64,000 nucleotides of DNA from Candidatus Binataceae bacterium (lineage in GTDB: Bacteria; Desulfobacterota; Binatia; Binatales; Binataceae): assembly GCA_050011435.1 (NCBI GenBank), contig JBEKJC010000001.1, positions 85,556 through 149,555 of the forward strand, in the 5' to 3' direction. Shown piece after piece: positions 1-54,602 of this stretch. A program made the translations under genes and the position numbers. Below the pieces are notes generated by a model. That model made no database searches, was not told the origin of the DNA, and saw only the letters and a program-made list of their open reading frames with translations. Numbering within the stretch: the first letter of the stretch is position 1; every line of letters begins with the position of its first letter.

Positions 1-596
1 TAGGGTCCGCGTATAGCCAGTTCGAAACCACGGACGAGCCGGTCGATTTGATCTGAGAATCCTCCGCCGGGGATACGCTTCACGATGAGTTCGATACGAT
101 CCGGGCTGCCCGGTGAACTGGCTATTGAATAGCAGCGCCAATGTCCCGGCTGTCCCGGTGCTTCAACCTCGATATATTGACCCGGATAGAACGTGATTGG
201 AGTAGTCAATTCAAGCTGGAGTCGCCATAACGATTCGTTCAACCGATCGACCGACGCGAGCTTCGCGATGTGATCTTGAGGAGTGATGATAGCGGCGTCG
301 TCCCGATTCGAACTGTCCTGATCGCGGATTACAAGATCGGACAACGCTCGCGCCTGGCATAGCAGCGCCCATCCTTCGTCCTTTTCATTGTCGGTCAGGC
401 AGTAGGGTGAGGTCTTGCCGAAATCGACCTCGCCGTCAATCAAGAAATATTTGCAACTGGAGCAGCGCCCGTTGCGGCATCCGTACTGAAGCAGGATGCG
501 CTGGCGCAGGGCGCAATTGAGGACGGAATCGTCCGCATCGAGAGAAAATTCCCGGCCGCTGGGCTCGAGCCGAGCCTTGAACGTCTTAACGGCCAC
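1..596 (-). CDS. Soluble diiron monooxygenase reductase component (MmoC-like), N-terminal part; the gene runs off the window
   Basis: Own translation of the minus strand from a GTG at 596: VAVKTFKARLEPSGREFSLDADDSVLNCALRQRILLQYGCRNGRCSSCKYFLIDG...LLCQA...RCYSIASSPG. This gives a plant-type 2Fe-2S ferredoxin motif C-x4-C-x2-C...C, then an RxYS FAD-binding motif. Lies 11 bp downstream of the coupling-protein gene. Confidence 0.75.
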   Translation of the reverse strand, partial: MAVKTFKARLEPSGREFSLDADDSVLNCALRQRILLQYGCRNGRCSSCKYFLIDGEVDFGKTSPYCLTDNEKDEGWALLCQARALSDLVIRDQDSSNRDDAAIITPQDHIAKLASVDRLNESLWRLQLELTTPITFYPGQYIEVEAPGQPGHWRCYSIASSPGSPDRIELIVKRIPGGGFSDQIDRLVRGFELAIRGP

Positions 597-607
597 GTGG
601 CTGCGAC

Positions 608-937
608 TCAGATGGTTGACGGTTCGAGTTCCAGCATCTGAGAGGTGATTCGAAACACGTTCTCTTCGATGTCCACCCGACCGACATAAGTCGTCATTAT
701 GGTCAGCCACTGACCGAGATCGATCTCGCGTCCCAATTCTTCTCCGACGCGCGCGAGATCGACGACGAGTTCATCCTGCGCGCCGATTTGCCAAAACGTA
801 CCGTGGTCCTCGATCTTCGCGTCCGGCTGATCGCGGCGAATCACGCTGATCGTCGCATCCGCCTCGTCACCTTTCATGAGCACTACGAGGACGGATCGGC
901 CTTTGGCCTTGGGATCTTGAGCGCCCATCGAATTCAC
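608..937 (-). CDS. Monooxygenase coupling/effector protein (MmoB-like)
   Basis: 109 aa ORF. Size and position between the beta subunit and the reductase fit an SDIMO regulatory protein. Overlaps the beta gene by 4 nt. Confidence 0.65.
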   Translation of the reverse strand: MNSMGAQDPKAKGRSVLVVLMKGDEADATISVIRRDQPDAKIEDHGTFWQIGAQDELVVDLARVGEELGREIDLGQWLTIMTTYVGRVDIEENVFRITSQMLELEPSTI

Positions 938-1965
938 CCATTACCATTACGGCCAATGCCGAGGTCGTCCAAAATTTTCGCTTGCGTGCCGCATGCGACG
1001 GCAAGGTCTTCATCGATCGACCGGGAGCGGGAAGGCACGCGATTATAGACGGGGGCGAAGGCTATGGCCGCGGCGCTCGCCAGTGGAGTCCAACGCTCAA
1101 TCCAACTCCGAATGACCATTCGATTATTCTCGGCCGCGGGCAGGTCCGGCGCCGTCGTCATCCGCACCAGTTCCTCCGTCCAGGCCTGATTGCGCCGCCG
1201 ATCGCGCTCGGTTGTGAGTATGATCATCGGTGTAGTCGGGTCGCCATGAGCCGGCCCGTGATGGCGGATCAGGCGGCTGACTCCAACCTCGGTCGCGATC
1301 GGATCGATAACCAGATTTACGGCGAAAGCGATCTCGGCCCAGTCATCGGTCGCCATCAGCGTTTCAACCAACCGGCGCAGCGGCTGGTAAACCGGATCGC
1401 CGAGCCAATGATCCTTGCTCGCATGATCCTTGAAACCTTCGACCCGCGCTTCGAGTTCCATCAGGTAGAGCACGGTCGATTGCGCGTGCCTGATGCGATC
1501 GACGGCCTCGAAACAAAGCGCGTTACCGAGCGTATCGGAAAGTGCTTCGCGTTGCGCACGTGAAAAGGCGCGGAAAAGCCCATACTCGAAGAATGACCAT
1601 ACCCGGTAGTGGATGCCGATGATTTCGTTGAGCCACACCGGATGGAACTCACTCAAGATGCCCGCGATGCCGGCGTCTTCGACGTTCCGTTCGATCGATC
1701 GCTCCTGCTCGGCCTGCAGCTTCACGTAGTAACGCTGCCACAGCCCGGATGGGTCGCGGAAATCAAACCAGTGCGGGTGCTGCAGGCGGGTCGATTCGGG
1801 GCGCCAGGCTGCGCGCCCCTCGGCGGACAGCAGGTACCAGCCCTGACGATCGAAAACGTTGGGGTCGGGCTGCGTATAGCAACTGACCGCCTCATATTCG
1901 GAAAGCCGGCGCTTGCGCGGCTTTATATAGTTAAAATCGCGGGGGGTCTGAGCAATCTCATTCAT
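934..1965 (-). CDS. Soluble diiron monooxygenase hydroxylase beta subunit (MmoY-like)
   Basis: 343 aa ORF directly downstream of the alpha subunit; the alpha stop and beta start overlap by 1 nt. The size and aromatic-rich helical composition are typical of the SDIMO beta subunit. Confidence 0.7.
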   Translation of the reverse strand: MNEIAQTPRDFNYIKPRKRRLSEYEAVSCYTQPDPNVFDRQGWYLLSAEGRAAWRPESTRLQHPHWFDFRDPSGLWQRYYVKLQAEQERSIERNVEDAGIAGILSEFHPVWLNEIIGIHYRVWSFFEYGLFRAFSRAQREALSDTLGNALCFEAVDRIRHAQSTVLYLMELEARVEGFKDHASKDHWLGDPVYQPLRRLVETLMATDDWAEIAFAVNLVIDPIATEVGVSRLIRHHGPAHGDPTTPMIILTTERDRRRNQAWTEELVRMTTAPDLPAAENNRMVIRSWIERWTPLASAAAIAFAPVYNRVPSRSRSIDEDLAVACGTQAKILDDLGIGRNGNG

Positions 1966-3470
1966 TACTGATTCCTCAACGGATCGCGAATCTCATAACG
2001 CGCGGCTCGGATGTCATCGATCGTCCACATCCGCTCCTCGTTGAGCCACGGTTGCGCGATCAGGGTCTTGCCGTCGGCTCTGAGTAATCCGTTTTCGACG
2101 ATGAAATCCGCGAGGTCGTAGCCGTCGAACAGTTCGTAAAAGGAGGTATAGCCGAGATACCTCTGCGGCTCCTGATCGAAGAACAATTCACAGGAGGCCG
2201 AGCAAAACGCATGGCGCTTTCCGGCGAACTCTTTAATCCGGCAGGTTGAGATGTCGATGCGCGGGAATACGCACGGCATCTGGCACACCCGGCAGAGCGG
2301 CGGCAGGTTCGCGAACAAGGAAAGCGACAACTCACCATTGCGCGGATCGCATCGGCGCTGGTATTCGTCCCAGAACTTTCCGTAATAGCCATGCCAGCCG
2401 GGATATTTGCGCTCGAACCAGTCCATATCCTTGGCCGTCATCGGATCGAACCGCCAGAACTGGAGCGGCCAGGCGCCAAATGCGACCATCGCAGCGGTAT
2501 GACCCAGCCACGGAACACGTTCGCGCGCCGCCGCATAACCGCTCGGAACCTTGAGCCCGAACGGCGCCAGGCGTTCGATATACGAACCGATCCAATCCAC
2601 ATCGATCCATTCCCGCCATTTCTCGTGGTAACAGGTGGTGCGGTTGGTTTGAAAATAATCCCAGACCGCCGCAACGAATGGATCGATGAAGGCGTGCTGG
2701 CGCCAGAAGGCGCGGTCGAAATCAAGCTGGAGTGCGGGCAGATTGTCGGGATTCGAAACCACTGCGGCCAGTGTCGAATAGCCATTAGCCATGTGCCGCG
2801 ACTCGTCGGACTGAATACTCAGAAAAACCGAGGGAGTTACCTGGTCGCCATTTGAAGCGGCGATTTCGGTCAGCGCGACGAAGATCGGATTGGTATATGC
2901 AGTCTCGGCGACGACTTGCAGGTTGAGGGCGCCTTCAATCGGATCGCCCATGAAAAAGGCTTCGAAGGCGGCGCGGCCGGCGCGATTGAACAGATTGGTG
3001 CCGCGCAGCTTGAAGCCCTGCGCGAAGCCTTCCGGGTCGGCGGCGTGTTTGGCGAAGTAGCGCGCCAGGTAAGCTTCCTGATGGGTGTGCCGCACCTCGT
3101 CGAGCATTTGCGCCAGATAACCCTGGCGGAGTTCCGCATTGGCGATAGTTTCGATGAGCTGCCCAGTGGATTTCATCGCGGCATACTCACCGAAATTGAG
3201 GATCGGCAGCACCGCCTTCATGATTTCCATCCAGCGAGGCTCAGCCCTGGACGAAGCCTGTCCGCGTGCGAGCGCGTCCTCCATCGAGCCGTACTGGCGA
3301 TTATCCTTTTCCTCTTCCATCGATAAGTAATCGCGCACGAGGTGACGGAACGGATCTTTGGTCTTGGCGGGTATCTTATATTTCGTCGGGTACCAATTGG
3401 GCTTTTCAACGTAGGAGGGTTCCCAGTCAAAATCTTTCACTCGGTTGTGAGCTTCGGTCAGGTTTCGCAT
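1965..3470 (-). CDS. Soluble diiron monooxygenase hydroxylase alpha subunit (sMMO MmoX-like)
   Basis: Diiron ligand motifs LDEVRHTHQ and SIQSDESRHMANGY are present. There is long collinear similarity to MmoX: NGYLAQ.LDE.RHTHQ, FLSI..DE.RHMANGY, DGKTLIAQP and W(T)(I/L)DDI near the C-terminus. Start reassigned to the internal ATG at 3470, beginning MRNLTEAHNRVKDFDW, because that N-terminus aligns with the MmoX N-terminus. The 31-codon upstream extension is probably untranslated; a GGGGA ribosome-binding site lies 9 nt before 3470. Confidence 0.9.
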   Translation of the reverse strand: MRNLTEAHNRVKDFDWEPSYVEKPNWYPTKYKIPAKTKDPFRHLVRDYLSMEEEKDNRQYGSMEDALARGQASSRAEPRWMEIMKAVLPILNFGEYAAMKSTGQLIETIANAELRQGYLAQMLDEVRHTHQEAYLARYFAKHAADPEGFAQGFKLRGTNLFNRAGRAAFEAFFMGDPIEGALNLQVVAETAYTNPIFVALTEIAASNGDQVTPSVFLSIQSDESRHMANGYSTLAAVVSNPDNLPALQLDFDRAFWRQHAFIDPFVAAVWDYFQTNRTTCYHEKWREWIDVDWIGSYIERLAPFGLKVPSGYAAARERVPWLGHTAAMVAFGAWPLQFWRFDPMTAKDMDWFERKYPGWHGYYGKFWDEYQRRCDPRNGELSLSLFANLPPLCRVCQMPCVFPRIDISTCRIKEFAGKRHAFCSASCELFFDQEPQRYLGYTSFYELFDGYDLADFIVENGLLRADGKTLIAQPWLNEERMWTIDDIRAARYEIRDPLRNQ

Positions 3471-3648
3471 TGCGTTTTTCCCCGAGTTCGATGATTTAAT
3501 TCGTAAGACGAGCCACGGTGTAGCTCCAGATGAGCATATCGGCAAAGGCTGTCGCGATGTCAATCGAGGCCGCCTCGTGGGCAGGCCTCGGCAATGAAAC
3601 GTTGTTTGCCGGACCAGTCTGGCGCTTCGAGCAGAATTGCACGGCTGA

Positions 3649-4527
3649 CTAATCGGCGTGCGGCATCCCCCAGTTCCATCCGTCGTAGCCGGGCGCGTAG
3701 TCGATATTGCTCTGCGACGGATTGCGATTTACCAGCGGCCGCAGATAGATCGGATGTTTCATGCTGCGCACTTCGTGCTCGATTGTGTACAACACCTTGC
3801 CGGTCTCGGGGTCGACCAGGTCCTTGAAGCGGTATTGATGCTGGTCGCTCTCTTCGAAAATCAGGCCGCGCTTCAGCAACTTGCGATACGGACCGGAAAA
3901 GTCCGCAACATAGACCTGGACGTGATGGCCATCGTAGGGCGGCAGCGGACGATCGGTCTCGCGGAACAGCAGGTGCTGTCCGACGCCGACCGACACGCGG
4001 GCGTGCCGTCCTCGATCGTCTTCAACGACCTCCGCGGGCGTCGCGATGATCTCCCGATAGAAGCGGACGATGCCATCGGCGGTTCCGGCGGGTACGTCGA
4101 ACTCCACGTAGGGAATTCCCAGCGTGATCGGGCCGAAGCGTTGGCTCGGCTCGTAGCAGCGGATGCGGTTGCCCCAGGGGCAGGTCGTGTCGACAAAGCC
4201 CTCGTGCTCCTCGAAGGCGAAGCGGGTGTCTCCGAGATACTTGCGCACCTTGGTCAGGCGCCGCACGAGCGCTTCCCGATCCGGCATCACGACGCCGACG
4301 TGGCCGCGCAGCACCTGCGCCTTGTTGCCCGGGAGGTGGAACTGACAGCGGCCCACGTTGATCCACATGTTCTGGGTGCCGGTCATCAGGAAGGGATCGC
4401 GCGTCAAGCCGAGGCCGGTGACGTAGAACACTGTCGCGACCTGCTGATCGGGGACCGTGACGTTGACATGCTCGAGCGCGACGACATTGCCGAGATCCTC
4501 GGCAGCGCGGTCGAATTTGCTTTCCAT
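3649..4527 (-). CDS. VOC (glyoxalase/extradiol dioxygenase-like) family protein
   Basis: 292 aa with a two-module beta-alpha-beta-beta-beta-like composition (HVNVTVPD...). Assignment is tentative. Confidence 0.45.
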   Translation of the reverse strand: MESKFDRAAEDLGNVVALEHVNVTVPDQQVATVFYVTGLGLTRDPFLMTGTQNMWINVGRCQFHLPGNKAQVLRGHVGVVMPDREALVRRLTKVRKYLGDTRFAFEEHEGFVDTTCPWGNRIRCYEPSQRFGPITLGIPYVEFDVPAGTADGIVRFYREIIATPAEVVEDDRGRHARVSVGVGQHLLFRETDRPLPPYDGHHVQVYVADFSGPYRKLLKRGLIFEESDQHQYRFKDLVDPETGKVLYTIEHEVRSMKHPIYLRPLVNRNPSQSNIDYAPGYDGWNWGMPHAD

Positions 4528-4651
4528 AAGCGCCTTCCAATCCGGTTTATTTCAGTTGGTAAAATTGTACCGAGTGAGTATGCGATCGTCCGGGCCGAAA
4601 ACTCAGAAGCAACCCGCTGCATGTCCAGCGCACGAACCCGCCGGATTCGAA

Positions 4652-5869
4652 CTAATCAGATTCGGCGGCGATCATCCCAGGCTCGTGCAAGGCCAGGCTT
4701 ACGGCGCAACCCAACACGGGCACCAACGACAGCAAAAACATCGTCATACCCAGTCCATAATGATCGGCGATCGAACCAAACAGCGGCATCATCAGTCCAC
4801 CAATCGTCATTGAAAGGCCAAGCGTCACGCCGGCGGCCAGTCCCACTCGATTCGGCAGATATTCCTGAGCCATAACTACCACTACGCTGGTGGCGGCCGC
4901 CAGCGCGATACCTACGGGGACGAGGAGAATGCCGGCGGCCGTCAAGCCGTGAACACTCAGGAACGTGAGCATTAGCGGCGCCAGCGCTCCAAGCGATACT
5001 ACGATAACGATTTTGCGTCCGTAACGATCGGCCAGCCGCCCGCCGATTAACGTACCCACGGTCACCGCGACCAACAGCGTAGTTAGAGCGAGACCGCCGC
5101 CGGTCCTGGTTCCACCCAGGACGTGGGACCAGTAGAGCGGGATGAAGGTATTGAGTCCGAAGAAAACCATCGAGCGGAGCACCACCACGACCGTCAGCAG
5201 AATGAAATCGTTCCACTGTTCCGCACTATCAATCTGAGCGTGCGCGCGGGCTCCCACCAACAGGGAAGCATGTGCGGCAGCGAGGCGGGGTAACTGGTGG
5301 GTTAGCGCGACTGCCATAATCAAAACCGGCAGAGCGAGCACAATCGCGCCGCGAACACCGAAGGCAATCACGATTGGCGTGATCAGCAGCGGGCCAAGCG
5401 CAAACCCAGCCATCCCGCCGACCGTAAAGAGACTCATCGTGGTCGCTTGTCGCGAGCCGCTCAAATATCTGACGCGGCGCGCGGCCTCCGGATGAAACGC
5501 GGAGATACCCAGCCCGCTCAGCGCGATCGCCGCGAAGATCAGGCCATAGCTCGGCGCCATTCCCGCGAGCGCGACGCCAATGCCGGCGAAACTCAGACCC
5601 ACCGGAATCAGCCACGGCGATGGGCGCCGGTCGGCGAGCAGACCGAACAGCGGTTGGACCACAGACGAAGAAAGCGTCTGCGCCAGGATCAAACCCGCGG
5701 CCGCGGCGTAGGTGAGGTGATTGGCCGCGATGAAAAACGGCAGCATCGCAGGTACGACGCCTTGATTGAGATCGTCGGTCAGATGCGCGGCGGAAAGCAG
5801 GGCGATCGATTTGTAGTCGATTAGTTCGGCTTGCGGGGAATCAACCGAGATCTGTGCGAGTGCTCTCAT
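4652..5869 (-). CDS. MFS transporter
   Basis: 405 aa with about 12 hydrophobic segments and G-rich loop motifs typical of the major facilitator superfamily. Confidence 0.7.
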   Translation of the reverse strand: MRALAQISVDSPQAELIDYKSIALLSAAHLTDDLNQGVVPAMLPFFIAANHLTYAAAAGLILAQTLSSSVVQPLFGLLADRRPSPWLIPVGLSFAGIGVALAGMAPSYGLIFAAIALSGLGISAFHPEAARRVRYLSGSRQATTMSLFTVGGMAGFALGPLLITPIVIAFGVRGAIVLALPVLIMAVALTHQLPRLAAAHASLLVGARAHAQIDSAEQWNDFILLTVVVVLRSMVFFGLNTFIPLYWSHVLGGTRTGGGLALTTLLVAVTVGTLIGGRLADRYGRKIVIVVSLGALAPLMLTFLSVHGLTAAGILLVPVGIALAAATSVVVVMAQEYLPNRVGLAAGVTLGLSMTIGGLMMPLFGSIADHYGLGMTMFLLSLVPVLGCAVSLALHEPGMIAAESD

Positions 5870-5942
5870 AAGACGCTTCCCTCGAAAGAGCAGACTCTAA
5901 TGCGGCAGGCGCGGCGCGGTCTACAGCGGAAAGTGAAATCGG

Positions 5943-7682
5943 CTATGCGGAATCCACGAGGATAACGACTGAGTCGGGCGGCAACTCGATCGCGGCAGAA
6001 TCGATCGCGATGCCGGCGTCGGACGTCATCGCAATACGGCGCGGCGCGCTCGACGCGAGCGGAATCGATTGCGTCGCCGATGCGAGATTGCAGGCGACCG
6101 TCACCCGTCCGCGCGCGATCGTCAGCCAGCGCGCGTCCTCGTCGAACGCGACGTTTACCAGGTCCATGCGGCCATCGCGCAATTCCGGCATCTGCCCGCG
6201 CAAGCGAATGAGATCGCGATGCCATGCGAAGATCGCGCGGTGCGGCTCGCGCTCGAGTTCGGTCCATTCGAGCTTCGACCGCATAAAGGTCTCGCGCGCC
6301 TGCGGGTCGGGAATTTTAGCGGGATCCCAGCCGAAAGCCGCGAATTCGCGCTTGCGCCCCTCGCTGACCGCGCGCGCCAGTTCCGGCTCTTGATGTCCGG
6401 TGAAATAGAGAAACGGCGTCGACGCCGCCCATTCCTCGCCGTGAAAAAGCATCGGCACAAACGGCGAAGTGAGTATCAGCGCGGCGGCAATCTTGAGTCG
6501 CCCGGCGTTCATCAGATGCGCGCTGCGGTCGCCCGTCGCGCGATTGCCAACCTGGTCGTGGGTCTGCGCGTAGCCGAGGAACTTGTGTCCCGATAGACCG
6601 GTCGGCGCGCGCCCATGCCGCCGGCCGCGAAATGTCGAGTAGCGGCCATCGTAAACCCACGCCCGCCGCAGCGCCTTGGCGAGATCGGCGAGCGATCCGA
6701 AGTCCGCGTAATAGCCAGTGCGCTCGCCGGTCAGAACGGTGTGCAGCGCGTGATGGAAATCGTCGCTCCACTGCGCGTTGATGCCGTAGCCGCCGAGGTC
6801 GGTCGGTCTTACTATTCTGGGATCGTTCAGATCGCTTTCCGCGATCAAAACGAGTTGCCGCCCGAGTTCCCGCCCGAGGCTGCCGACTTCGTCCGCGAGC
6901 TGTTCGAGGATGTGGGTCGCCGAGGTGTCAACCATCGCATGCACCGCGTCGAGGCGCACTCCGTCGCAATGATAATCGCGCATCCACATGAGAGCGTTGT
7001 CGCAGAACAGCCGCCGCACTTCGTCGCTGCCGCGATCGTCGAAGTTGATGGCGTCGCCCCACGGCGTCGCGTAGCGATGAGTCAGGTACGGACCGAAGCG
7101 CGGTAAATAATTTCCCGACGGGCCGAGGTGGTTGTAAACCACGTCGATCAGCACCGCGAGGCCGCGCGCGTGGCACCCATCGACCAGCCGTTTCAAACCG
7201 TCCGGACCGCCATACCCGCGATGCGGCGCAAAGATCTCGACGGCATCGTAGCCCCATCCGCGATCGCCCGAGAATTCGGCCACCGGCATCAACTGAACGT
7301 GCGTCACGCCAAGGTCGGTCAGATGGGCGAGTCGCTCGATCGCGGCATCGAAAGTCCCGGCGGTCGTGAAGGTGCCGACGTGAAGTTCGTAGATGATTGC
7401 CGATTCGAGCGCGGGTGAGTTCCAGTTCGCGTCGGTCCAATTGAAGGCCGCATGATCGACGATGCGCGAACGGCCGTGTACGCCGTATGGCTGCGACTGC
7501 GATCGCGGATCCGGTAGCGGAGGGTCCGCGCCGTCAGCCACAAAAGCGTAATCCGCGCCGGGCGTCGCGCGCGCAGTCGCGATCGTCCACCAGCCGTTGT
7601 CGGCGCGCGTCATCGCGATGCGATCGCCGGCAATCTCGAGTTGAACAGCGCGCGCTGCCGGCGCCCACACGCGCAGAATCAT
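5943..7682 (-). CDS. treZ: Malto-oligosyltrehalose trehalohydrolase
   Basis: 579 aa GH13 enzyme with LMPVAEF, GYD and GVRLDAVHA catalytic-region motifs. Overlaps treY by 4 nt. Confidence 0.85.
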   Translation of the reverse strand: MILRVWAPAARAVQLEIAGDRIAMTRADNGWWTIATARATPGADYAFVADGADPPLPDPRSQSQPYGVHGRSRIVDHAAFNWTDANWNSPALESAIIYELHVGTFTTAGTFDAAIERLAHLTDLGVTHVQLMPVAEFSGDRGWGYDAVEIFAPHRGYGGPDGLKRLVDGCHARGLAVLIDVVYNHLGPSGNYLPRFGPYLTHRYATPWGDAINFDDRGSDEVRRLFCDNALMWMRDYHCDGVRLDAVHAMVDTSATHILEQLADEVGSLGRELGRQLVLIAESDLNDPRIVRPTDLGGYGINAQWSDDFHHALHTVLTGERTGYYADFGSLADLAKALRRAWVYDGRYSTFRGRRHGRAPTGLSGHKFLGYAQTHDQVGNRATGDRSAHLMNAGRLKIAAALILTSPFVPMLFHGEEWAASTPFLYFTGHQEPELARAVSEGRKREFAAFGWDPAKIPDPQARETFMRSKLEWTELEREPHRAIFAWHRDLIRLRGQMPELRDGRMDLVNVAFDEDARWLTIARGRVTVACNLASATQSIPLASSAPRRIAMTSDAGIAIDSAAIELPPDSVVILVDSA

Positions 7683-10360
7683 GCAGCACGCTCTTCGCGC
7701 GAAAGCAGGCAGACCGGAAATCGTGCGAGCAGGTTTGCCAGGAGCGTCTCACCGCCGTCGACGGCGTCGCCGGTCAATTCGTTGTGCCAGCGCCCGCGCG
7801 GCAGGGCAATCGCGGTCTCGGCCCAATCGCCGCCGAGCGTCAGCGGCAAGCGCGGAGCGATCGCGATCGCGCCATCGCCACGGCTGAACGCGATCGCGTG
7901 AGCGGCGCGGGTGCCGCGCGCGCGCAGCGGTTTGTAGTCGCCCTCGCGGCCGAAGAGTTGCGGCCGCCGCTGCCGCAAAGCGAGCGCCTGCCGCAGGAGC
8001 CAGAGCTTCGGCAGCCCTTCGTCGGCGCGCGCGATCACCTGCTCGACGGTCGCACAGCGAATTTCCGCGAGCAGGCGGCGCCGCAACGCGTAATCGACCG
8101 GCCGCCGATTGTCGGGATCGACCAGCGTAATGCTCCAGAGTTCGCCGCCTTGGTAAAAATCGGGGACGCCGGGCGCCGTCAGCTTGATCAGCGTCTGCGC
8201 GAGCGCGTTAACCCGTCCCGGCCAGACCAGCGGTGCCACGAACGCCGTCAGATCCGCCATGAATTCCCCATTGTCGAGTGCGCCTTCGATGAATCCCGCG
8301 AGCGATCGTTCGTATTCCTCATCGGGCGCGGTCCACGAGGTATGCAGCTTCGCTTCCCGCGCCGCCTTGCGCATGTAGTCCAGAATTCGATCGCGTTCGA
8401 TCGGCCACGCTCCGGCGAGAGTCTGGTAAAAGAGATACTCGAGGTTGCGATCGGAAAGTCCGCCGCGCCACCACGGCCGATTCATTTCGGACCATCCGCG
8501 CACCGCCGCGATCCAGCGATCCGGAATTTCCGACAGCAGGCTCATTCGCGCGCGCAGGTCGTCGCTGCGCTTGGTGTCGTGCGTGGAGGTCGTCAGCATG
8601 CGCCGCGGCCAGCGTGCTTGTGCGTTTTCGCATTCGCGATGAAACTGAACGGCCGCAACACCGAAGCGTGCCGGATCGCCGCCGACTTCGTTGAGCGCGG
8701 CGAAGCGGTTGAAGCAGTAAAAGGCGGTGTCCTCGATCGCCTTCGCCATCACCGGACCGGTGAGCTGCTGAAAGCGCATCGCGAGTTCCACCTCGAGCGG
8801 ACCGCGATGGTGCAACAGCAGAAGCTCGCGCAGGAAATCGAACAGGCGCTGATCGATATCGGGGCGATCGGCTTTGGCCCCTTCAATCGCCGCATCGATA
8901 TGGCGTTGATCGTCGGGGTGTATCGCTGCGTCCTCGGCTGCGCCCGCAGCATCGCCGGCTTCGCGCAGGTAGGTGCGATAGACCGGCAAGTGCGCGACGG
9001 CCGCGCATAGCGCTTCGTGCAATTCGTGGCGCGTGTAGTCGCGATGGCGCGGATGAAGCTCGCAGACTTCCACAAAAAGCGCGGTCAGGCGATTGAGGTC
9101 GCTGCCCAAGATTTCGCGCATCACGAAATCTTTCTTGGCCAGGGCGATGCGGGCGAAGTCAGCCGGTTCACCGGTGAACTCGGTGTAAAAGCGCGTGAGC
9201 GGCCGCTCTCCCGCCGGATCGATCAGCAGCCCCCCGACGCTATTCATGAAGTCGTAGCCCGTGCTCCCGGCGATCGGCCAGGACTCGCGCAGCGACTCTC
9301 CAGGTTCGAGAATTTTCTCGACCACTACCCACGCCGCCGGCTGTGCCTGATGCAGCCGCCGCAGGTACTGCTCGGGATCGCGCAGCCCGTCTATATGATC
9401 GACGCGGACGCCGTCCAGCGTGCCGTCCACCAGCCATCGCAGCACCAGGAAATGGGTGTCGGCAAAGACGTGCTCGTCTTCCATGCGCAGGCCGACGAGC
9501 GTGTTGATATCGAAGAATCTCCGATAGCCCAGATCGTGCGCGGCCGCACGCCAGTATGCGAGCCGGTAATTTTGCCGTTCGAGCAGGAGGTGCAGGGCGT
9601 CGCGTCGCTGATTGATCTCCTCGATGACCGCGTCGATCGCGGGACCGACTTCGCGATGCTCGCGGATCAGCCGCGTCAGGAAGGTACGCAGCACATCCTT
9701 GTCCCGATGGCGTCGGCGAGCCGTCTCCAGGCCGGTCGCGGTCGGCAATGGCAAACGCCCGAACGCGTCGGCGAGGAACGCCAGCTCGTCGGAACCGCAA
9801 CGCTCGGCGGCGGCGGACAAAATCGTGTCCAGGGATCGTGGAGCGACCGGGAACCGATGTTCATGATAGCGAAAGGTGAGCGCGGCGCCGTCGCGCTCGA
9901 GCACGATCTCGCCGGATTCCAGCACGACGCCGTATTGGTCGCCGAGCATCGGGATCAGCACCGAGTTGCGCAGCCGCTTTTCCGGCGTCTCCCAGTCGAC
10001 GTCGAAGTACGACGCATAGTTACTGGCCGGCCCGTTCTCGAGTACGTCCCACCACCAGGGATTATACGGGCTGACGATCGCCATGTGATTCGGCACCAGG
10101 TCGAGCACCTGCCCTAACCCGTGTTCGCGCAGTGCCGAATGCATCCGCGCATGTCCCGCCGCACCGCCCAGATCTTCGTTGATGCGGCGATGATCGACGA
10201 CGTCGTAGCCGTGGGTGCTGCCCGGAGTGGCCTGCAGATACGGTGAGCAGTAGAGATGGCTGATGCCGAGTTCGGCGAAGTATTCGGCCAGATTCGCCGC
10301 GTCATCGAAGGTGAAGCCGGAATGCAGTTGGACGCGATAGGTAGCGCGCGGTTCGACCAT
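7679..10360 (-). CDS. treY: Malto-oligosyltrehalose synthase
   Basis: 893 aa. N-terminus reads TYRVQLHSGFTFDDA...GISHLYCSPY; the GVRVDHIDGL motif is present. Confidence 0.85.
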   Translation of the reverse strand: MVEPRATYRVQLHSGFTFDDAANLAEYFAELGISHLYCSPYLQATPGSTHGYDVVDHRRINEDLGGAAGHARMHSALREHGLGQVLDLVPNHMAIVSPYNPWWWDVLENGPASNYASYFDVDWETPEKRLRNSVLIPMLGDQYGVVLESGEIVLERDGAALTFRYHEHRFPVAPRSLDTILSAAAERCGSDELAFLADAFGRLPLPTATGLETARRRHRDKDVLRTFLTRLIREHREVGPAIDAVIEEINQRRDALHLLLERQNYRLAYWRAAAHDLGYRRFFDINTLVGLRMEDEHVFADTHFLVLRWLVDGTLDGVRVDHIDGLRDPEQYLRRLHQAQPAAWVVVEKILEPGESLRESWPIAGSTGYDFMNSVGGLLIDPAGERPLTRFYTEFTGEPADFARIALAKKDFVMREILGSDLNRLTALFVEVCELHPRHRDYTRHELHEALCAAVAHLPVYRTYLREAGDAAGAAEDAAIHPDDQRHIDAAIEGAKADRPDIDQRLFDFLRELLLLHHRGPLEVELAMRFQQLTGPVMAKAIEDTAFYCFNRFAALNEVGGDPARFGVAAVQFHRECENAQARWPRRMLTTSTHDTKRSDDLRARMSLLSEIPDRWIAAVRGWSEMNRPWWRGGLSDRNLEYLFYQTLAGAWPIERDRILDYMRKAAREAKLHTSWTAPDEEYERSLAGFIEGALDNGEFMADLTAFVAPLVWPGRVNALAQTLIKLTAPGVPDFYQGGELWSITLVDPDNRRPVDYALRRRLLAEIRCATVEQVIARADEGLPKLWLLRQALALRQRRPQLFGREGDYKPLRARGTRAAHAIAFSRGDGAIAIAPRLPLTLGGDWAETAIALPRGRWHNELTGDAVDGGETLLANLLARFPVCLLSREERAA

Positions 10361-10378
10361 CTGAAGGCCCAGCGTATT

Positions 10379-12595
10379 TCAGAATTGCGGGACTTCCAAC
10401 CAGATTATCGCTAGCGGCGGAAGTATCAGCGACAATGAAAACTCGAGGCCGTGATGGGCGGTATGCTCGGCCATCACCGCGCCGGCATTGCCGACATTGC
10501 CGCCGCCATAGCTATTGGAATCGGTATTGAGAATCTCGCGATAAAGTCCGGCGGCCGGAACCCCCACGCGATATCCATTACGCACTACCGGCGAGAAATT
10601 GCAGACGCAGATTATCCGGCGGCCGCGCTGCGGCGCGATGCGCATAAACGCGACCACATTGTCGTCCACATTGTCGGCGTCGATAAAGCGAAACCCGCTC
10701 GGGTCGCCATCCGCTTCCCATAGCGCCGGCTCTTCCCGATAGATGCGGTTCAAGTCGCGCATCAGCGCCTGCAGTCCGCGATGGTCGTCGTATTCAAGCA
10801 GGTTCCAGTCCAGGCTCTCGTCGTGGTCCCACTCGCGCCATTGGCCGAATTCGCCGCCCATGAAGATCATCTTCTTTCCCGGACGCGCCCACATATAGCC
10901 ATAGAGCGCGCGCAGATTGGCGAACTGCTGCCCGCGATCGCCCGGCATCTTCGAGAGCAGCGATCCTTTCCGATGCACGACCTCGTCATGCGACAGCGGC
11001 AGGATGAAGTGCTCGCTCCAGGCGTATAGAAAACCGAACGTCACGTCGCGATGGTGATAGCGGCGGTATATCGGATCCTTCGAAAAATACTCGAGCGTGT
11101 CGTGCATCCAGCCCATGTCCCATTTGAAGCCGAAGCCCAGGCCGCCCAGGTAGATCGGACGGCTGACCGCGGGCCATGCGGTCGATTCTTCGGCGATCAT
11201 CATGATTCCCGGATTGCGCGCATATGCCGCGGTGTTGAGCGCCTTGATGAAATCGACCGCCTCGATATTTTCGCGACCGCCATACTGATTCGGAATCCAT
11301 TCGCCCTCGTTGCGCCCGTAATCGAGGTAGAGCATCGAGGCCACCGCGTCCACGCGCAGTCCGTCCGCATGATATTCGCCAAGCCACCACAGCGCGCTGG
11401 CGACCAGGAAGTTGCGCACTTCATCGCGGCCATAGTTGAAAATGTAGGTATCCCACTCGGGATGATGGCCTTTGCGCGCGTCCAGATGTTCATACAGCGC
11501 GGTGCCGTCGAAGCGGCCGAGCGCAAACGCATCGGTCGGGAAATGCGCCGGTACCCAATCCAGGATCACGCCGATTCCGCGCCGGTGCAGATAGTCAATC
11601 AGATAGCGAAAATCGTCGGGACTGCCGTAGCGCGCGGTCGGCGCAAAATAGCCAGTCACCTGGTAACCCCACGAACCGGTAAACGGATGCTCCATCACGG
11701 GCATCAACTGGACATCCGTGAAGCCCATCTCGGTGACGTAGTCGGCCAGCATCGGCGCCAATTCGCGATAGGTAAGCGTTCGGTTTTGCTCTTCGGGCAC
11801 TCGCCGCCACGACCCCAGATGCACCTCGTAAATCGATAGCGGCGATCGCGCCGCATCGCGCCGCCCCCGCGCCTCCATCCACTCGCCGTCGCCGAAAACA
11901 AAGTCCGATTGATATGTCACCGAAGCGGTCGCCGGTGGCGCCTCCGCCGCCGCCGCAAAAGGATCGGCCTTCAGCAGCAGGTCGCCGTCCCGCGTCCGGA
12001 TCTCAAACTTGTAACGCGCGCCGACTCCAATTCCCGGTATAAACAGCTCCCAGATTCCCGACGGACCGAGCGATCGCATCAAGTGGATGCGCCCGTCCCA
12101 ACCGTTGAAATCGCCCACCACGCTGACGCCGCGCGCGTTTGGAGCCCAGACCGCAAAGGCGAAGCCCGCGGCATCGTCGATCTCACGCGCGTGTGCCCCG
12201 AGTTTTTCGTAAATCCGTTCGTGCCGCCCTTCGTTCCACAAATGCAGGTCGAGGCTCCCGATCGTCGGCAAAAACGCGTAAGGGTCGCGAAACGTCACGA
12301 TCTCGCTGTCTGAGTAATGCACGCGCAGTTGATACGGGAAGACTTCGGCGCGATCCTTGATTAGCACTTCGAACAGGCCGCGCGGATCGATGCGCGCCAT
12401 GCGCCACGAATGTGCATCGCCGGCGATTACCGAGACCTGCTTTGCATCCGGCCGAAACGCCCGAATCGTGACACCTTCCGCGCCTGGATGCGCCCCGAGA
12501 ATCGAATGGGGATCCTGATGGCGCAGCGTGATCAGCCGTTCCAACTCCGCGGTCGCAATGCCGCCGCGATTCACCTCGGTGCCGGACTCCTTCAC
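10379..12595 (-). CDS. glgB: 1,4-alpha-glucan branching enzyme
   Basis: 738 aa. N-terminal CBM48 region followed by a GH13 core with DWVPAHF and GLRVDAV motifs. Confidence 0.9.
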
Positions 12596-12982
12596 TGCCC
12601 CTCCTCGCCCTCCATGAATTCCACTTCGACCAGCGCTGGTTGCGCGCCTCCGCTCTTCTCACCCAATGGTATTATATCCGTGATGCGCGCGCTGCGGACC
12701 TTGTCGGCATAATCCCGCAGCCGTCGACATTGCCGCAGGCAAAGCTTGGATTGCGCCATCGTTGCGTTAAACTCCCGCTCAAGAGATTTAGCAGGGTGTC
12801 AAGCAACCGTGAAAATGCCAATTTCGGCGACGCGCTATCCCACCTCGCCCCCGAACTGATGCGCCGCCCTATGAGGATATTCGACAATCCAGTGATGCTG
12901 CTCTATTGCCCACCCGAAGGCGTGCGTCAGATTAAAGGCTCGCGCATGATCGCAATCGCCCTCCGAATGTGCCCGTACCCCG

Positions 12983-14410
12983 ATGGCCACGCGCGGTAAC
13001 CCTCGCCTCGTTCCGGCCGGGGCCTCGTCCGCGGCCTTCGAGATCGCGGGCGACGAGGTCGCCATCGGCAGTGCGCCCGGCAACGATCTCGTCGTTGGCG
13101 ATCCCACCGTATCGCGCCGTCACGCGACCATCGCACGCCACCATAATCGCGTGCGGCTGACCGACCTCGGCGCGACCAACGGAACTTACGTCAACGGCAG
13201 CCGCATATCGAAACCGGTTGACCTCAAGGACGGCGATGAGCTTCGCTTCGGCGCCGCGATCTTTCGCTTTGCCGCGAGCGCCCCCGCGCGGCGTTCGGGT
13301 CCGCGCGCCATCCCCGCAATCGTCGCGCTCGTGCTCATTTTCGCCGCCGGCTTTGCGGTTACCCTGCATATGGTTAATTTCAACCGCCTCCAGCAGGCCG
13401 CCGAAATCTCGCCCCCGCCATCTAGCTCGACCAACGGAATTTCGCCGCGCGTTGCAGGCTCATCCGCCGCCGGCCCCGCTGCCGGTGCGACCGCTCGACC
13501 CGAGGCTCCCGCTATACCTCCACTGCCCGCGCCGACTGCATCGCCCGTTACCGCCGTCCACGATTCTATCCCCCTCGCGGATCGCCTGTGGCTCGACCCG
13601 CTAAATCGGTATCGCCAAAGCGCAGGCGTCCCTCCGGTGACCGCTAATTCGAACCTCAGTCGCGGCGATTATCTGCACTCGCGCTATATCGTAAAGAACT
13701 TCGGCGCGCGTCTCGCCGCCCGTGAGAACCTCGGTCCCGAGATGCACTTCGAAGATTCGTCAAAACCCTGGTACAGCGTCGCGGGAGCGGCTGCGGGCCG
13801 CGCCGGCGATGTCGACGAGATGTGGAATCCGCGTGGCACCGCGTCGCCCTCATGGGCGCTCGACAATTGGATGCAGTCGCCCTTCCATCGGCTACCCATC
13901 CTCAATCCGCATCTGCACAGCGTCGGCTATAGCTACTATTGCGAGGGCGCAATGTGTATCGCCGCGCTCAATCTCAACAGCGACGTCGACCCCATATTGT
14001 CCGCGCCGGCGCCTTTCGCGACGCCGATCGAGTACCCGCCCAACGGCGCCTCGATTGAGATGAATTCGTTCGATGGAGAATGGCCCGATCCTCTCGCGAG
14101 TTGCTCCGGCTACTCACTACCGGCCGGATACCCAATTACTCTTCAGCTCGGTTCGATGGTTAATCCCGGCTTCACCAGTGTCTCTTTCAAGCGTACGGCG
14201 CCCGCGTCCGCCACGCTCGAAGCCTGCGCGTTCGACGGCAATTCCTATCGCAATCCGGATCCGGGAACACAGAAGATGATCCGCTATCAACTGATCAACT
14301 TCGGCGCGATCGTCATCATGCCGCGCGCTCCGCTCACGCGCGGTACCTACTCGGTGTCGATAGTCGCCGGGGGCCGCGACTACTCATGGTCCTTTGCCGT
14401 CGAACATTGA
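12983..14410 (+). CDS. FHA domain-containing membrane protein with a C-terminal extracytoplasmic domain (possibly CAP/SCP-like)
   Basis: N-terminal FHA signature: VVGDPTVSRRHATIARHHNRVRLTDLGATNGTYVNG...DGDELRFG. One transmembrane segment, AIPAIVALVLIFAAGFAV, a Pro/Ser/Ala-rich linker, then a roughly 250 aa Cys-containing domain. Confidence 0.65.
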   Translation: MATRGNPRLVPAGASSAAFEIAGDEVAIGSAPGNDLVVGDPTVSRRHATIARHHNRVRLTDLGATNGTYVNGSRISKPVDLKDGDELRFGAAIFRFAASAPARRSGPRAIPAIVALVLIFAAGFAVTLHMVNFNRLQQAAEISPPPSSSTNGISPRVAGSSAAGPAAGATARPEAPAIPPLPAPTASPVTAVHDSIPLADRLWLDPLNRYRQSAGVPPVTANSNLSRGDYLHSRYIVKNFGARLAARENLGPEMHFEDSSKPWYSVAGAAAGRAGDVDEMWNPRGTASPSWALDNWMQSPFHRLPILNPHLHSVGYSYYCEGAMCIAALNLNSDVDPILSAPAPFATPIEYPPNGASIEMNSFDGEWPDPLASCSGYSLPAGYPITLQLGSMVNPGFTSVSFKRTAPASATLEACAFDGNSYRNPDPGTQKMIRYQLINFGAIVIMPRAPLTRGTYSVSIVAGGRDYSWSFAVEH

Positions 14411-14450: not shown

Positions 14451-16115
14451 CTACTCACTTGCGCCCTTCGCATTGCGCTCGAATACGCAGTTAATCAGCG
14501 CCTGGGCTTCATGCTGAATCACCCGCAAATGCTCGATGTCCCGAAAACTCTCCGCGTAAATCTTGTAAACCTCTTCGGTCCCCGATGGCCGCGCGGCGAA
14601 CCACCCGCTCTTGGTCACAACCTTGAGTCCGCCAATCGCCGCTCCGTTGCCGGGTGCGGTAGTCAACTTCGCGATAATTTTCTCTCCCGCGAGTTCATCA
14701 GCCTCCACCTGTTCGGGCGCCAACTTCGCGAGGATCGCTTTCTGCCGTGGAGTCGCCGGCGCATCGATACGTTCATATACCGGCGTGCCAAACTCGCGCA
14801 TCAGCGCGGTGTATAGTTCCCCCGGGTCGCTGCCCGTTTTCGCGGTCATCTCCGCGGCCAGCAGCCCCAGGATGATTCCGTCCTTATCGGTCGTCCACAC
14901 GCTGCCGTCCATCCGCAGGAACGATGCGCCCGCGCTTTCTTCGCCGCCAAAGCCTAGCGAACCATCGCTCAGTCCATCGACGAACCACTTGAAGCCCACC
15001 GGCACCTCGACCAATCGCCGTCCCAGCTTTGCCGTCACGCGATCGATCATGCTGCTGCTGACGACGGTCTTGCCCACTGCCGCGTCTCTCGGCCAGCTTT
15101 TACGGTTCTCGAACAAATATGCTATCGCTACTGCCAAATAGTGATTTGGATTGAGCAATCCCGCCGTGCGAGTGACTATTCCGTGCCGGTCGTTGTCGGT
15201 GTCGTTGGCAAACGCTACGTCGAAGCGATCGCGCATGCTCACAAGTCCGGCCATCGCGTAGGGAGAAGAACAATCCATCCGAATCTTGCCGTCCCAATCG
15301 ACGCGCATGAAGCGAAAGGTCGGGTCCACGCTGTCGTTCACCACCGTCGCGGCGATCCCGTAACGATCGATGATCGGACCCCAGTAATGCACCCCCGCCC
15401 CGCCCAGCGGATCCACGCCGATTCTCACGCCCGCACTGCGAATCGCCTCCATATCGACGACCTTGCCCAAATCGGCGACGTAATTATCAATGAAGTCGTA
15501 TCGATGAGTCGTCGGCGCAGCGAGCGCCCTGGTCATTGGCACTCGCGGTACGCCCAACAGGTCCGCGGCCATAAGTATATTGGCCTGCTCCTCGATCCAT
15601 TTTGTGGCCTTGCTATCGGCGGGTCCGCCGTGCGGGGGGTTGTATTTCAAACCGCCGTCGGCCGGTGGATTGTGTGACGGCGTTATCACGATGCCGTCGG
15701 CTAGTTTCGATTTTCGACCGCGATTGTACGTGAGGATTGCGTGCGACACCGCCGGCGTCGGCGTATAACCGCGATTCCGATCGATCATGACCTCGACACG
15801 GTTCCCGGCCAGAACCTCCATCGCGCTGGCAAACGCCGGCTCGGAAAGCGCGTGCGTATCGATGCCGAGAAACAGCGGCCCATCGATACCCTGGCTCTTG
15901 CGATAGATGCAGATCGCCTGCGTGATGGCGATGATGTGGTATTCGTTGAAGGCGCTGTCGAAGGCGCAGCCGCGATGGCCCGAGGTGCCGAACGCCACTC
16001 GCTGTGCTGCGATCGACGCGTCCGGCCGCTCGCTGTAATATGCGGTTATCAGGCGCGGCACGTTCACCAGCGTTTTCGGATCGGCGAGCTTGCCCGCAAG
16101 TGGACTGATATTCAT
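14451..16115 (-). CDS. pgm: Phosphoglucomutase, alpha-D-glucose phosphate-specific
   Basis: 554 aa. GTSGHRG active-site loop and TPSHNP metal-binding-loop context. Confidence 0.9.
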
Positions 16116-16163
16116 AAGTGAAACCTGTTCGCGTCGATATCGTGTCGATATCGTATTCCGGTT

Positions 16164-35076: not shown

Positions 35077-35078
35077 GG

Positions 35079-35984
35079 TCAGGCAATCACTCCGAGGCGC
35101 GGGAACTCGCGCGCCATGATTTCGTCGAGGTGCGAGGCGCCGAAGGCGGGCGCATACATGATGCCGCGGCGGGAGCAGAAGGCGCTCAGGCGCGCGGTGT
35201 GATCGGCGACGCGGCGGCGGCAGGCTTCGGCGGCGGCGGGGCCGAAGACGACGTCGCGCAGTTCGCCGCTCTCACAATCGCGTACGCGGTAATTGCCGGG
35301 CGGATAGTTGCCGGTGGACTCGCGATCGCCCATCACGTTCAGCACCTTGACTTCGTGGCGGGCGCCGAGGAGGCGGTCGAGTGCCTCTTCATAATCGCCG
35401 GGGCTGACCAGGAAATCCGAAATCACAATGACCATTCCGGGCGGGCGCCGCTCATGGAGCAGATCGCCGACGGCCGCGGAGATGCGGGTCGCGCCGCCGG
35501 ATTTAAGCGCATTGACGAAGGGGCGAAACTCGACATAGGTCTCGCGGCGGCGGCGAAACGGCGTGGTCTCGAGGCGCGATCCGCCGTGGCGTCCCGCAAA
35601 CGCGACGAGGCGGACGGGATCGTTCTCGTTCATGCCGATGAAGGCGAGGCCGGCGCCGAGGGTGAGCGCGAGACCGAGCTTGTCGTCGTCGGCCGGCACT
35701 GCCATCGAAGCGCTGGCATCGACCATGATGGTGATTTCGAGCTGGCGTTCGGCGCGAAAGGTGCGGATGGTCAGGTCGTCCAGGCGCGCGAAGGCGTTCC
35801 AATCGAGGAAGCGGAGGTCGTCGCCGGGGGAATACTCGCGGAAGTTTTCGGGCTCGATGCCGCCGCCCTGGTGGCGTCCGATGATGCGCTGGCCGGCGCG
35901 ATGCGTGCGAGCGCGCCGAGTGCCGAGCATCAGACCGTCGAGCTGGTGGAGAAATTCGGGCTCGAATGCGCGCGCCTCGAGCAT
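35079..35984 (-). CDS. DUF58 domain protein (VWA-like)
   Basis: EYSPGDDLRFLDWNAFARLD motif, characteristic of DUF58 partners of MoxR. Confidence 0.75.
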   Translation of the reverse strand: MLEARAFEPEFLHQLDGLMLGTRRARTHRAGQRIIGRHQGGGIEPENFREYSPGDDLRFLDWNAFARLDDLTIRTFRAERQLEITIMVDASASMAVPADDDKLGLALTLGAGLAFIGMNENDPVRLVAFAGRHGGSRLETTPFRRRRETYVEFRPFVNALKSGGATRISAAVGDLLHERRPPGMVIVISDFLVSPGDYEEALDRLLGARHEVKVLNVMGDRESTGNYPPGNYRVRDCESGELRDVVFGPAAAEACRRRVADHTARLSAFCSRRGIMYAPAFGASHLDEIMAREFPRLGVIA

Positions 35985-35998
35985 CGCTGGTGTTTCCC

Positions 35999-37047
<1,049 letters not shown>

Positions 37048-37051
<4 letters not shown>

Positions 37052-54462: not shown

Positions 54463-54602
54463 TGATGAAACTCCTTGAAGCCCCTCAAGCTACACGAAGC
54501 ACCGACGCCTGTCAGCCTCGGTGGGCCTCGATGCATTAACCGGCGCGCAAGCTTTTGTGCTACTCCAAATTTCAAATCTTCAAACAGGAGCGCGTATTTG
54601 CC

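Follow-up and report, generated by a model that had tools for sequence, protein, structure and literature searches.

Group 6 soluble diiron monooxygenases (SDIMOs) are the least studied of the alkane-oxidizing SDIMOs. They are defined by a four-gene order of alpha subunit, beta subunit, coupling protein and reductase, and their listed substrates are propane, n-butane, 1,4-dioxane and tetrahydrofuran (THF; Yang et al., 2025, PMC11825192); in the known actinobacterial members, hydroxylation is terminal and chlorinated alkanes are co-oxidized (PMC11825192, PMC11057499). Genetic work in R. aetherivorans BCP1 has tied SmoABCD to growth on butane, pentane, hexane and, in part, propane, and also to chloroform/trichloroethane degradation (PMC11057499). 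According to Ferrari et al. (2024, PMC11057499), the group occurs only in Mycobacterium and Rhodococcus; Yang, Kertesz and Coleman (2025, PMC11825192) included Candidatus Binataceae and Chloroflexi sequences, all uncharacterized, in its subgroup B. A survey of Binatota genomes reported prmABC, labeled propane-2-monooxygenase, in some of them and no soluble methane monooxygenase (sMMO; Murphy et al., 2021, PMC8262859). The locus described here lies on a 64,000-nucleotide (nt) stretch of a Candidatus Binataceae contig (JBEKJC010000001.1, positions 85,556 to 149,555; “the window”), and very probably encodes a complete, functional three-component SDIMO of group 6, of the propane-1-monooxygenase (SmoABCD/PrmABCD) type, on the Binataceae chromosome. 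Both the enzyme class and its occurrence in Binataceae have already been reported, and the locus is real and fairly ordinary; it corrects a tempting mislabel, having the look of an sMMO-like group 3 enzyme and yet being a standard group 6 operon.

The described systems that it most resembles are PrmABCD of M. dioxanotrophicus PH-06, SmoABCD of BCP1 and the group 6 operon on plasmid pMYCCH.01 of Mycolicibacterium chubuense NBB4, all with the same four-gene order and with neither a gamma subunit nor a ferredoxin. Window subunits are up to 61% (alpha), 43% (beta) and 33% (coupling protein, against the same systems) identical to theirs and similar in size; the alpha subunits fall in one tree clade and have in common the ligand set, Glu151, Thr-Ala-Tyr and Phe217 (MmoX numbering). 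The window operon differs from NBB4 and other actinobacterial group 6 systems in its host and in being chromosomal rather than plasmid-borne, and it has no adjacent GroEL-like chaperonin, NDMA-type alcohol dehydrogenase, aldehyde dehydrogenase or GAF/LuxR regulators. The group 3 Smo systems (NBB4 SmoXYB1C1Z, Rhodococcus sp. ZPP) have the first four genes, the ligands, an sMMO-related alpha fold and a Cys4 motif in common with the window, but have a gamma gene after the reductase, longer SmoY and SmoB, an alpha subunit only 43-45% identical, and a separate clade with 100% support. The sMMO of Methylococcus capsulatus Bath and Methylosinus trichosporium OB3b (MmoXYBZDC) has the same catalytic architecture and is the best structural template, but the window alpha is 38.5% identical to MmoX, has Glu in place of Cys151 and carries a Cys4 motif that MmoX lacks, and there is no MmoZ, MmoD, MmoG or MmoR and no methylotrophy gene nearby. 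Group 4 EtnABCD (Nocardioides JS614, NBB4) likewise has four components without gamma, an alpha subunit 47-48% identical, and the same Glu151 and Thr-Ala-Tyr, but differs in its beta-coupling-alpha-reductase order, in the adjoining EtnE and in forming a separate clade.

The operon reads from right to left on the minus strand and continues past the left edge of the window:

1-596, minus strand: NADH:acceptor reductase, N-terminal 198 of 340 amino acids (aa), from a GTG start at 596; cut by the window edge
608-937, minus strand: coupling (effector) protein of the MmoB/DmpM family (Pfam MmoB_DmpM, 7e-19)
934-1965, minus strand: hydroxylase beta subunit, 343 aa (Pfam Phenol_Hydrox, 5e-55)
1965-3470, minus strand: alpha subunit of the hydroxylase, with the ATG at 3470 giving 501 aa (Pfam Phenol_Hydrox, PF02332, 2e-51)
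2190-2294, minus strand: Cys4 motif toward the alpha C-terminus, YHS-like (weak Pfam YHS match)
2793-3188, minus strand: codons of the diiron ligands and adjoining pocket residues, from alignment to MmoX numbering
3471-3574, minus strand: upstream leader, with a putative promoter-like TTGACA/TATGCT pair and a GGGG before the ATG

The presence of all four genes, intact and with scores far beyond chance, is confirmed. An earlier note, made from the letters alone, had proposed this set of alpha, beta, coupling protein and reductase, and it is borne out by Pfam, NCBIfam and structure matches; NCBIfam itself gave no family for alpha, and its matches to the other three were all far under the equivalog cut-offs. 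The same note carried the operon to 3563, which is only the TTG at which the longest alpha open reading frame (ORF) opens. The true start is almost certainly the ATG at 3470, because homologues are 501-503 aa long and public gene calls agree. The alpha/beta junction is TAATG, with the beta ATG overlapping the alpha stop by 1 nt. The coupling protein has 106 aa from an ATG at 928, the start used in public gene calls, or 109 aa from a GTG at 937, and 11 nt separate it from the reductase. Purifying selection is strong in comparison with three relatives, with a ratio of nonsynonymous to synonymous substitution rates (dN/dS) of 0.04 for alpha and 0.10-0.14 for beta and the reductase.

All six ligands of the four-helix-bundle diiron site are present in alpha, as the earlier note had read from the E...EXXH motifs: E95, E125, H128, E189, E223 and H226 (ATG numbering), which align to MmoX E114, E144, H147, E209, E243 and H246, respectively. 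T193 and N194, the equivalents of MmoX T213 and N214, are also conserved. Several pocket positions differ from MmoX: Glu takes the place of Cys151, a residue common to groups 6 and 4 (the Smo type has Val), Thr-Ala-Tyr that of Ala-Cys-Phe at 210-212, again common to groups 6 and 4, and Phe that of Ile217, common to group 6. Toward the C-terminus, a CxxC...Cx3C motif (C393, C396, C423, C427) is invariant in 24 relatives and probably forms a structural metal (zinc) site. By alignment it is also found in group 6, group 4, Smo-like enzymes, group 5 ThmA and DmpN, and is missing from MmoX Bath, the group 5 alpha of Methylocella tundrae and the toluene/alkene-type XamoA. Among solved structures, alpha aligns to MmoX over residues 23-523 at E = 7e-117, with phenol and toluene hydroxylases at 1e-39 to 1e-33.

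Group assignment rests on comparison with references from annotated plasmids for group 6 (NBB4 pMYCCH.01, PH-06, Mycobacterium ELW1) and with references for group 3 (MmoX Bath, NBB4 SmoXYB1C1Z, the Rhodococcus ZPP homologue), group 4 (EtnABCD of JS614 and NBB4) and group 5 (the M. tundrae Prm-like enzyme, Rhodococcus ruber Thm), with XamoA and DmpN as tree outgroups. The window alpha is 59-61% identical to group 6 (61% to PH-06 PrmA and to the NBB4 group 6 alpha), 46.6-48.3% to group 4, 43.3% and 45.3% to the Smo-type group 3 alphas of Rhodococcus ZPP and NBB4, respectively, 38.5% to MmoX Bath, and 36-39% to group 5. It thus falls under the alpha identity cut-offs of Yang et al. (2025, PMC11825192) for groups 3 and 4 (50% each) and group 5 (40%). 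In neighbor-joining trees, the window grouped with the characterized group 6 enzymes (PH-06, NBB4, ELW1), to the exclusion of groups 3, 4 and 5, in 90.5% of 200 bootstrap replicates (29 taxa); a second tree, of 68 taxa, gave the same grouping in 94 of its 100 replicates. Group 3 formed a separate clade with 100% support, which the window joined in 0/200 and 1/100 replicates; it grouped with group 4 in none of 100, and group 5 was the most distant of the alkane/alkene groups. Gene order agrees: the annotated NBB4, PH-06 and ELW1 group 6 loci have the alpha-beta-coupling-reductase order of the window, which is neither the group 4 order (beta, coupling protein, alpha, reductase) nor that of group 5 (alpha, reductase, beta, coupling protein). 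Identity to XamoA and DmpN is 24-25%, and both are outgroups in the trees; on its sequence, the enzyme belongs to the sMMO-related alkane/alkene branch, as the earlier note supposed, and not to the aromatic/phenol hydroxylases.

The other subunits point in the same direction, with differing resolution. Identity of beta is highest to group 6 (41-43%), then to group 4 (33-34%) and to groups 3 and 5 (29-31%), with SmoY at 30-31%; for the coupling protein, group 6 ranks first at 33-35%, with SmoB at 26-28%. The 198-aa reductase fragment places Smo clearly last and does not separate groups 4, 5 and 6 (32-39%). At 343 and 106 aa, beta and the coupling protein are close to the group 6 ranges of 349-363 and 89-111 aa, and their Smo counterparts are longer (SmoY 399-408 aa, SmoB 144-175 aa), sizes that fit group 6 and not Smo. 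The reductase fragment comprises a plant-type [2Fe-2S] ferredoxin domain and the start of an FAD domain, carries the CX4CX2C...C [2Fe-2S] and RxYS FAD motifs, and matches NCBIfam MmoC (1e-27) and BenC (6e-28).

One possibility that needs weighing is that this is a group 3 Smo- or sMMO-like alpha2-beta2-gamma2 enzyme, with genes for gamma, MmoD, a chaperonin and a regulator just past the left edge, where the earlier note thought that missing components might lie. MmoX is indeed the best solved-structure match, with no group 4-6 entry among the matches, and the end-to-end alignment to MmoX on which the note relied holds. The smoXYB1C-type order that it quoted is likewise right for NBB4 and Rhodococcus ZPP, in which the first four genes are arranged as in the window and gamma follows the reductase. 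(The annotated records, L008 for Rhodococcus ZPP and L095 for NBB4 pMYCCH.01, give alpha, beta, coupling, reductase, gamma, a small discrepancy with the text of the 2025 review, which has alpha, beta, coupling, gamma, reductase; PMC11825192.) The sequence beyond the edge can be read from three public contigs (L096, L097 and L098), which are 100% identical to window positions 1-13470 without a mismatch; because of this identity, and because L096 (ENA ERZ27249924 k141_107575, 130,757 bp) also matches the right end of the window, they are the same genomic segment. They reach about 8 kb past the edge, through the full 340-aa Fer2-FAD-NAD reductase (L096 12875-13897) and a CoA-transferase gene to convergent unrelated genes (small ORFs, DUF2231, LysM, an FtsJ/S4 methyltransferase, exonuclease VII). 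This extension holds no gene for gamma, MmoD, a chaperonin, an alcohol dehydrogenase or a regulator, and the leftward search that the note proposed for mmoZ-, mmoD- or groEL-like genes and an alcohol dehydrogenase is thereby answered in the negative. Nor did two SmoZ queries find anything SmoZ-like by tblastn to E<=10 in the window, L096 and six close relatives, with no match below E = 0.5; blastx at 1e-8 found no gamma subunit in 79 related loci; and no MmoD/orfY-type small ORF is present in the window or L096, either between the coupling protein and the reductase or after the reductase. As to gene content, a group 3 enzyme with an off-window gamma is refuted. Group 3 membership also founders on alpha identity (38.5-45%, under the 50% cut-off), on the trees, on the much shorter beta and coupling proteins, and on Glu for Cys/Val151 and Thr-Ala-Tyr for Ala-Cys-Phe; overall this explanation is very improbable. 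It is still less credible that the operon is the group 5 propane-2-monooxygenase of the 2021 survey. That label comes from prmABC in some Binatota genomes (Murphy et al., 2021, PMC8262859) and does not fit here: alpha identity is under the 40% cut-off, gene order differs, and group 5 is the most distant alkane/alkene group in the trees.

Two further possibilities, both unlikely and to a similar degree, concern the physiological role. The enzyme might be a group 4-like alkene monooxygenase, epoxidizing ethene, propene or isoprene for growth: group 4 EtnC is the second-closest group, Glu151 and Thr-Ala-Tyr are common to both, and uncultured bacteria, a Binatia metagenome-assembled genome (MAG) among them, hold relatives that combine the group 4 gene order with an alpha identity of 51-58% (L063-L068, L075). 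The gene order of the window is nevertheless that of group 6, no bootstrap replicate placed it with group 4, and the 64-kb window has no EtnE-like epoxyalkane:CoM transferase. Alternatively, a group 6-type enzyme could act on something other than a gaseous alkane (a cyclic ether, a ketone or a small soil metabolite), with the CoA-transferase then processing a C4 acid such as 4-hydroxybutyrate/butyrate. PH-06 PrmABCD, a group 6 enzyme, supports growth on 1,4-dioxane and THF (PMC11825192), there is no alcohol or aldehyde dehydrogenase near the operon, and the CoA-transferase gene begins 137 nt downstream of the reductase on the same strand. This gene (L096 14035-15378) encodes a 447-aa protein of the acetyl-CoA hydrolase/transferase family, which might serve to activate a C3/C4 acid formed as product; among NCBIfam models it matches butyryl-CoA:acetate CoA-transferase best (TIGR03948, 4e-62), but at 210 bits against an equivalog cut-off of 675. 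The gene accompanies the operon only in the window lineage and one syntenic relative.

Several points weigh against assignment as a group 6 propane-1-monooxygenase, or at least against carrying function over from the actinobacterial enzymes. Direct pairing of the Binataceae/Chloroflexi clade with the mycobacterial one has only 55% node support, inside a larger clade that is well supported, and the trees are distance-based rather than maximum-likelihood. The pocket differs from that of the mycobacterial enzymes, with Leu instead of Val at MmoX position 110 and Ala instead of Val or Cys at 188. The accessory genes of actinobacterial group 6 loci (GroEL-like chaperonin, NDMA-type alcohol dehydrogenase, aldehyde dehydrogenase, GAF/response-regulator genes) are absent from the window, its left extension and the non-actinobacterial relatives; across the full 64 kb there is also no Fe-type alcohol dehydrogenase or EtnE. 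Since such genes are described as only partially conserved beside group 6 operons even in Mycobacterium (PMC11057499), their absence is not a defining failure. Transfer of substrate is weak, because alpha is only about 61% identical to any characterized enzyme.

How would such an enzyme work? By homology, the reductase would take two electrons from NAD(P)H via FAD and its [2Fe-2S] cluster and pass them to the carboxylate-bridged diiron center that alpha holds within a gamma-less (alpha-beta)2 hydroxylase. The MmoB/DmpM-type effector would bind the hydroxylase, gating O2 activation and substrate access, and a small hydrophobic substrate would receive one oxygen atom. This electron path is inferred here by analogy with characterized systems, as are the quaternary structure, the substrate and the regiochemistry. 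On that analogy, terminal hydroxylation of short-chain n-alkanes (about C2-C6) is the most likely physiological role, and alkenes, chlorinated alkanes and cyclic ethers are also likely to be co-oxidized.

Related loci were collected by a scan of one genome per species, which gave 79 loci typed by blastx against reference subunits (retrieved loci carry L numbers here). The complete alpha-beta-coupling-reductase order is found in 36 of these species-level loci, and a gamma homologue in none. The 36 come from MAGs labeled delta proteobacterium, Gammaproteobacteria, Myxococcota, Chloroflexota and Spirochaetales, and from Actinomycetota isolates and MAGs; “delta proteobacterium” is a legacy label, and several loci bearing it are near-identical to the Binataceae window. 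The Dormibacterota loci retrieved are alpha-only. Only in Actinomycetota are complete operons flanked by GroEL, NDMA-type alcohol dehydrogenase, aldehyde dehydrogenase and GAF/response-regulator genes. The best named relative of alpha, at 87% identity, is from Candidatus Binataceae.

Three close relatives, L019, L024 and L016, have 94-96% alpha identity. Synteny between L019 and the window extends over about 11 kb and takes in TreZ, a gene for a 292-aa protein and the CoA-transferase. Between L019 and L024/L016, similarity starts about 100 nt before the alpha ATG and ends at the reductase stop or just beyond it; L024 and L016 resemble each other for about 200 nt more, and the flanks differ in L024 and L016 (loci at about 6900-10900). 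Likewise, similarity of the window to L024 and L016, with their different flanks, ends at window position 3574. Because similarity stops at the leader and the reductase stop while the flanks differ, the four genes and their short leader behave as a self-contained, relocatable cassette. The CoA-transferase was considered as a conserved partner of this cassette and rejected: it recurs only in the syntenic L019 (11047-12387) and not in the 80-plus other loci. In L016, an ORF beside the cassette (11451-11867, minus strand) looks by eye like the N-terminus of a transposase or integrase, and fragments of this sequence are also found in L024; the small ORFs past the reductase in these two loci look either spurious or like insertion-sequence remnants.

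The leader has TTGACA at 3563-3558, TATGCT 19 nt downstream of it, and GGGG as a putative ribosome-binding site before the alpha ATG. The block TTGACA...GATATGCT is common to the window, L019, L024 and L016; the shared TTGACA/TATGCT pair is weak evidence for a promoter, because these relatives are alike overall. In the leader, a consensus scanner called no sigma-70 site, and no sigma-54 -24/-12 motif was seen by eye. Directly upstream of the TTGACA is a GC-rich hairpin (window 3565-3590, minus strand) whose arms, CGAGGCCTGCC and GGCGGCCTCG, pair over about 10 bp with a single bulge and enclose a loop of 5 nt; no T-run follows the hairpin, and the relatives do not conserve it.

Among more distant relatives, six loci in Chloroflexota/Dormibacterota MAGs (L027, L037, L042, L043, L050, L060) have alpha subunits 62-68% identical to that of the window, with no beta, coupling protein or reductase gene within up to 7 kb on each side (less at contig ends). 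Near these alpha-only genes are a response regulator and a GAF protein (L037, L042, L043, L060) or an NDMA-type alcohol dehydrogenase (L050). Either these are operons that have been split, or something less usual is involved. Another six (L063, L064, L065, L068, L075, L076), in proteobacterial and Binatia MAGs, some with dubious labels, have alpha subunits 51-58% identical to that of the window and the group 4/7 order beta-coupling-alpha-reductase. In the trees they lie outside the group 6 clade, weakly beside group 4, so that in these loci the order of the genes seems not to follow the grouping by sequence.

In public metagenome assemblies, 47 index blocks hold the exact 501-aa alpha protein; 23 contigs were read, including some of 36-131 kb from JGI 3300017925, JGI 3300043536 and ENA ERZ27249924. 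The population carrying the operon is therefore common, recurring across many metagenome samples. The survey extends the 44 group 6 sequences of the 2025 review, and shows that the enzyme type is more abundant in metagenomes and widespread in uncultured Binatia, Gammaproteobacteria, Myxococcota, Chloroflexota and, as alpha-only loci, Dormibacterota. The understanding of SDIMO function is left unchanged by this locus; its points of modest interest are the lack of an adjacent chaperonin and of downstream dehydrogenases, the cassette behavior, and the abundance in metagenomes. A group 6 cassette with no chaperonin beside it could reasonably be put forward for expression in heterologous hosts and for screens in biocatalysis or bioremediation. 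More speculatively, and with only a slim chance of being right, the Binataceae/Chloroflexota/Dormibacterota/proteobacterial branch of group 6 could differ in function from the actinobacterial enzymes, as a compact cassette that moves horizontally, needs no chaperonin and serves abundant uncultured soil bacteria in scavenging trace ethane, propane or butane, conceivably methane, or a substrate new to SDIMOs. If so, Binataceae would be soluble-monooxygenase-dependent gas oxidizers, with an SDIMO that is expressed without a dedicated GroEL.

As regards the host, the window DnaK is 85-89% identical to Candidatus Binataceae proteins in eight of nine taxon-named matches, the ninth carrying the legacy label Deltaproteobacteria; the earlier note's expectation of an unusual lineage, here an uncultured one, is thus borne out by Candidatus Binataceae. 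Its description of the context as non-methylotrophic also stands: the 64-kb window has no methylotrophy genes and no dedicated alkane-pathway genes, and has instead trehalose, glycogen, phosphoketolase, oxo-acid dehydrogenase and DnaK/DnaJ/GrpE genes. Features to the right of the operon include:

3649-4527, minus strand: 292-aa protein (Pfam Glyoxalase only, E = 0.027)
4652-5869: MFS transporter (from Pfam)
5943-12595 and 14451-18563, minus strand: trehalose/glycogen set TreZ, TreY, GlgB, then phosphoglucomutase and phosphoketolase
30630-37051, minus strand: MoxR AAA+ ATPase, DUF58, BatA-like and large VWA-domain cluster, of Bat/aerotolerance type
51481-53091, minus strand, and 54555-56161, plus strand: sigma-54-dependent activator with N-terminal GAF, near thiolase-like and ChsH2-type (zinc-ribbon/OB-fold) genes

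Of the two neighbors that the earlier note had named, the MFS transporter is confirmed by Pfam and the VOC-family protein only in part, by the weak Glyoxalase match. This 292-aa protein lies outside the conserved cassette and has no relative in the PDB by sequence. Its family has at least 8000 relatives, many from Binataceae at about 70% identity, and is barely detected by Pfam; the VOC label comes from the annotations of homologues, some of which are called VOC family, glyoxalase-like or catechol-2,3-dioxygenase-like by their sources. The GAF sigma-54 activator is 48 kb from the SDIMO operon, with no link evident, and the carbohydrate-storage genes of the TreZ/TreY/GlgB set directly adjoin the monooxygenase. 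The remainder of the window is made up of ordinary chromosomal genes, among them a transglutaminase/ATP-grasp set, several short-chain dehydrogenases, 3-hydroxyisobutyrate dehydrogenase, branched-chain 2-oxoacid dehydrogenase E1/E2, acyl-CoA dehydrogenase, shikimate dehydrogenase, DnaJ, DnaK and GrpE.

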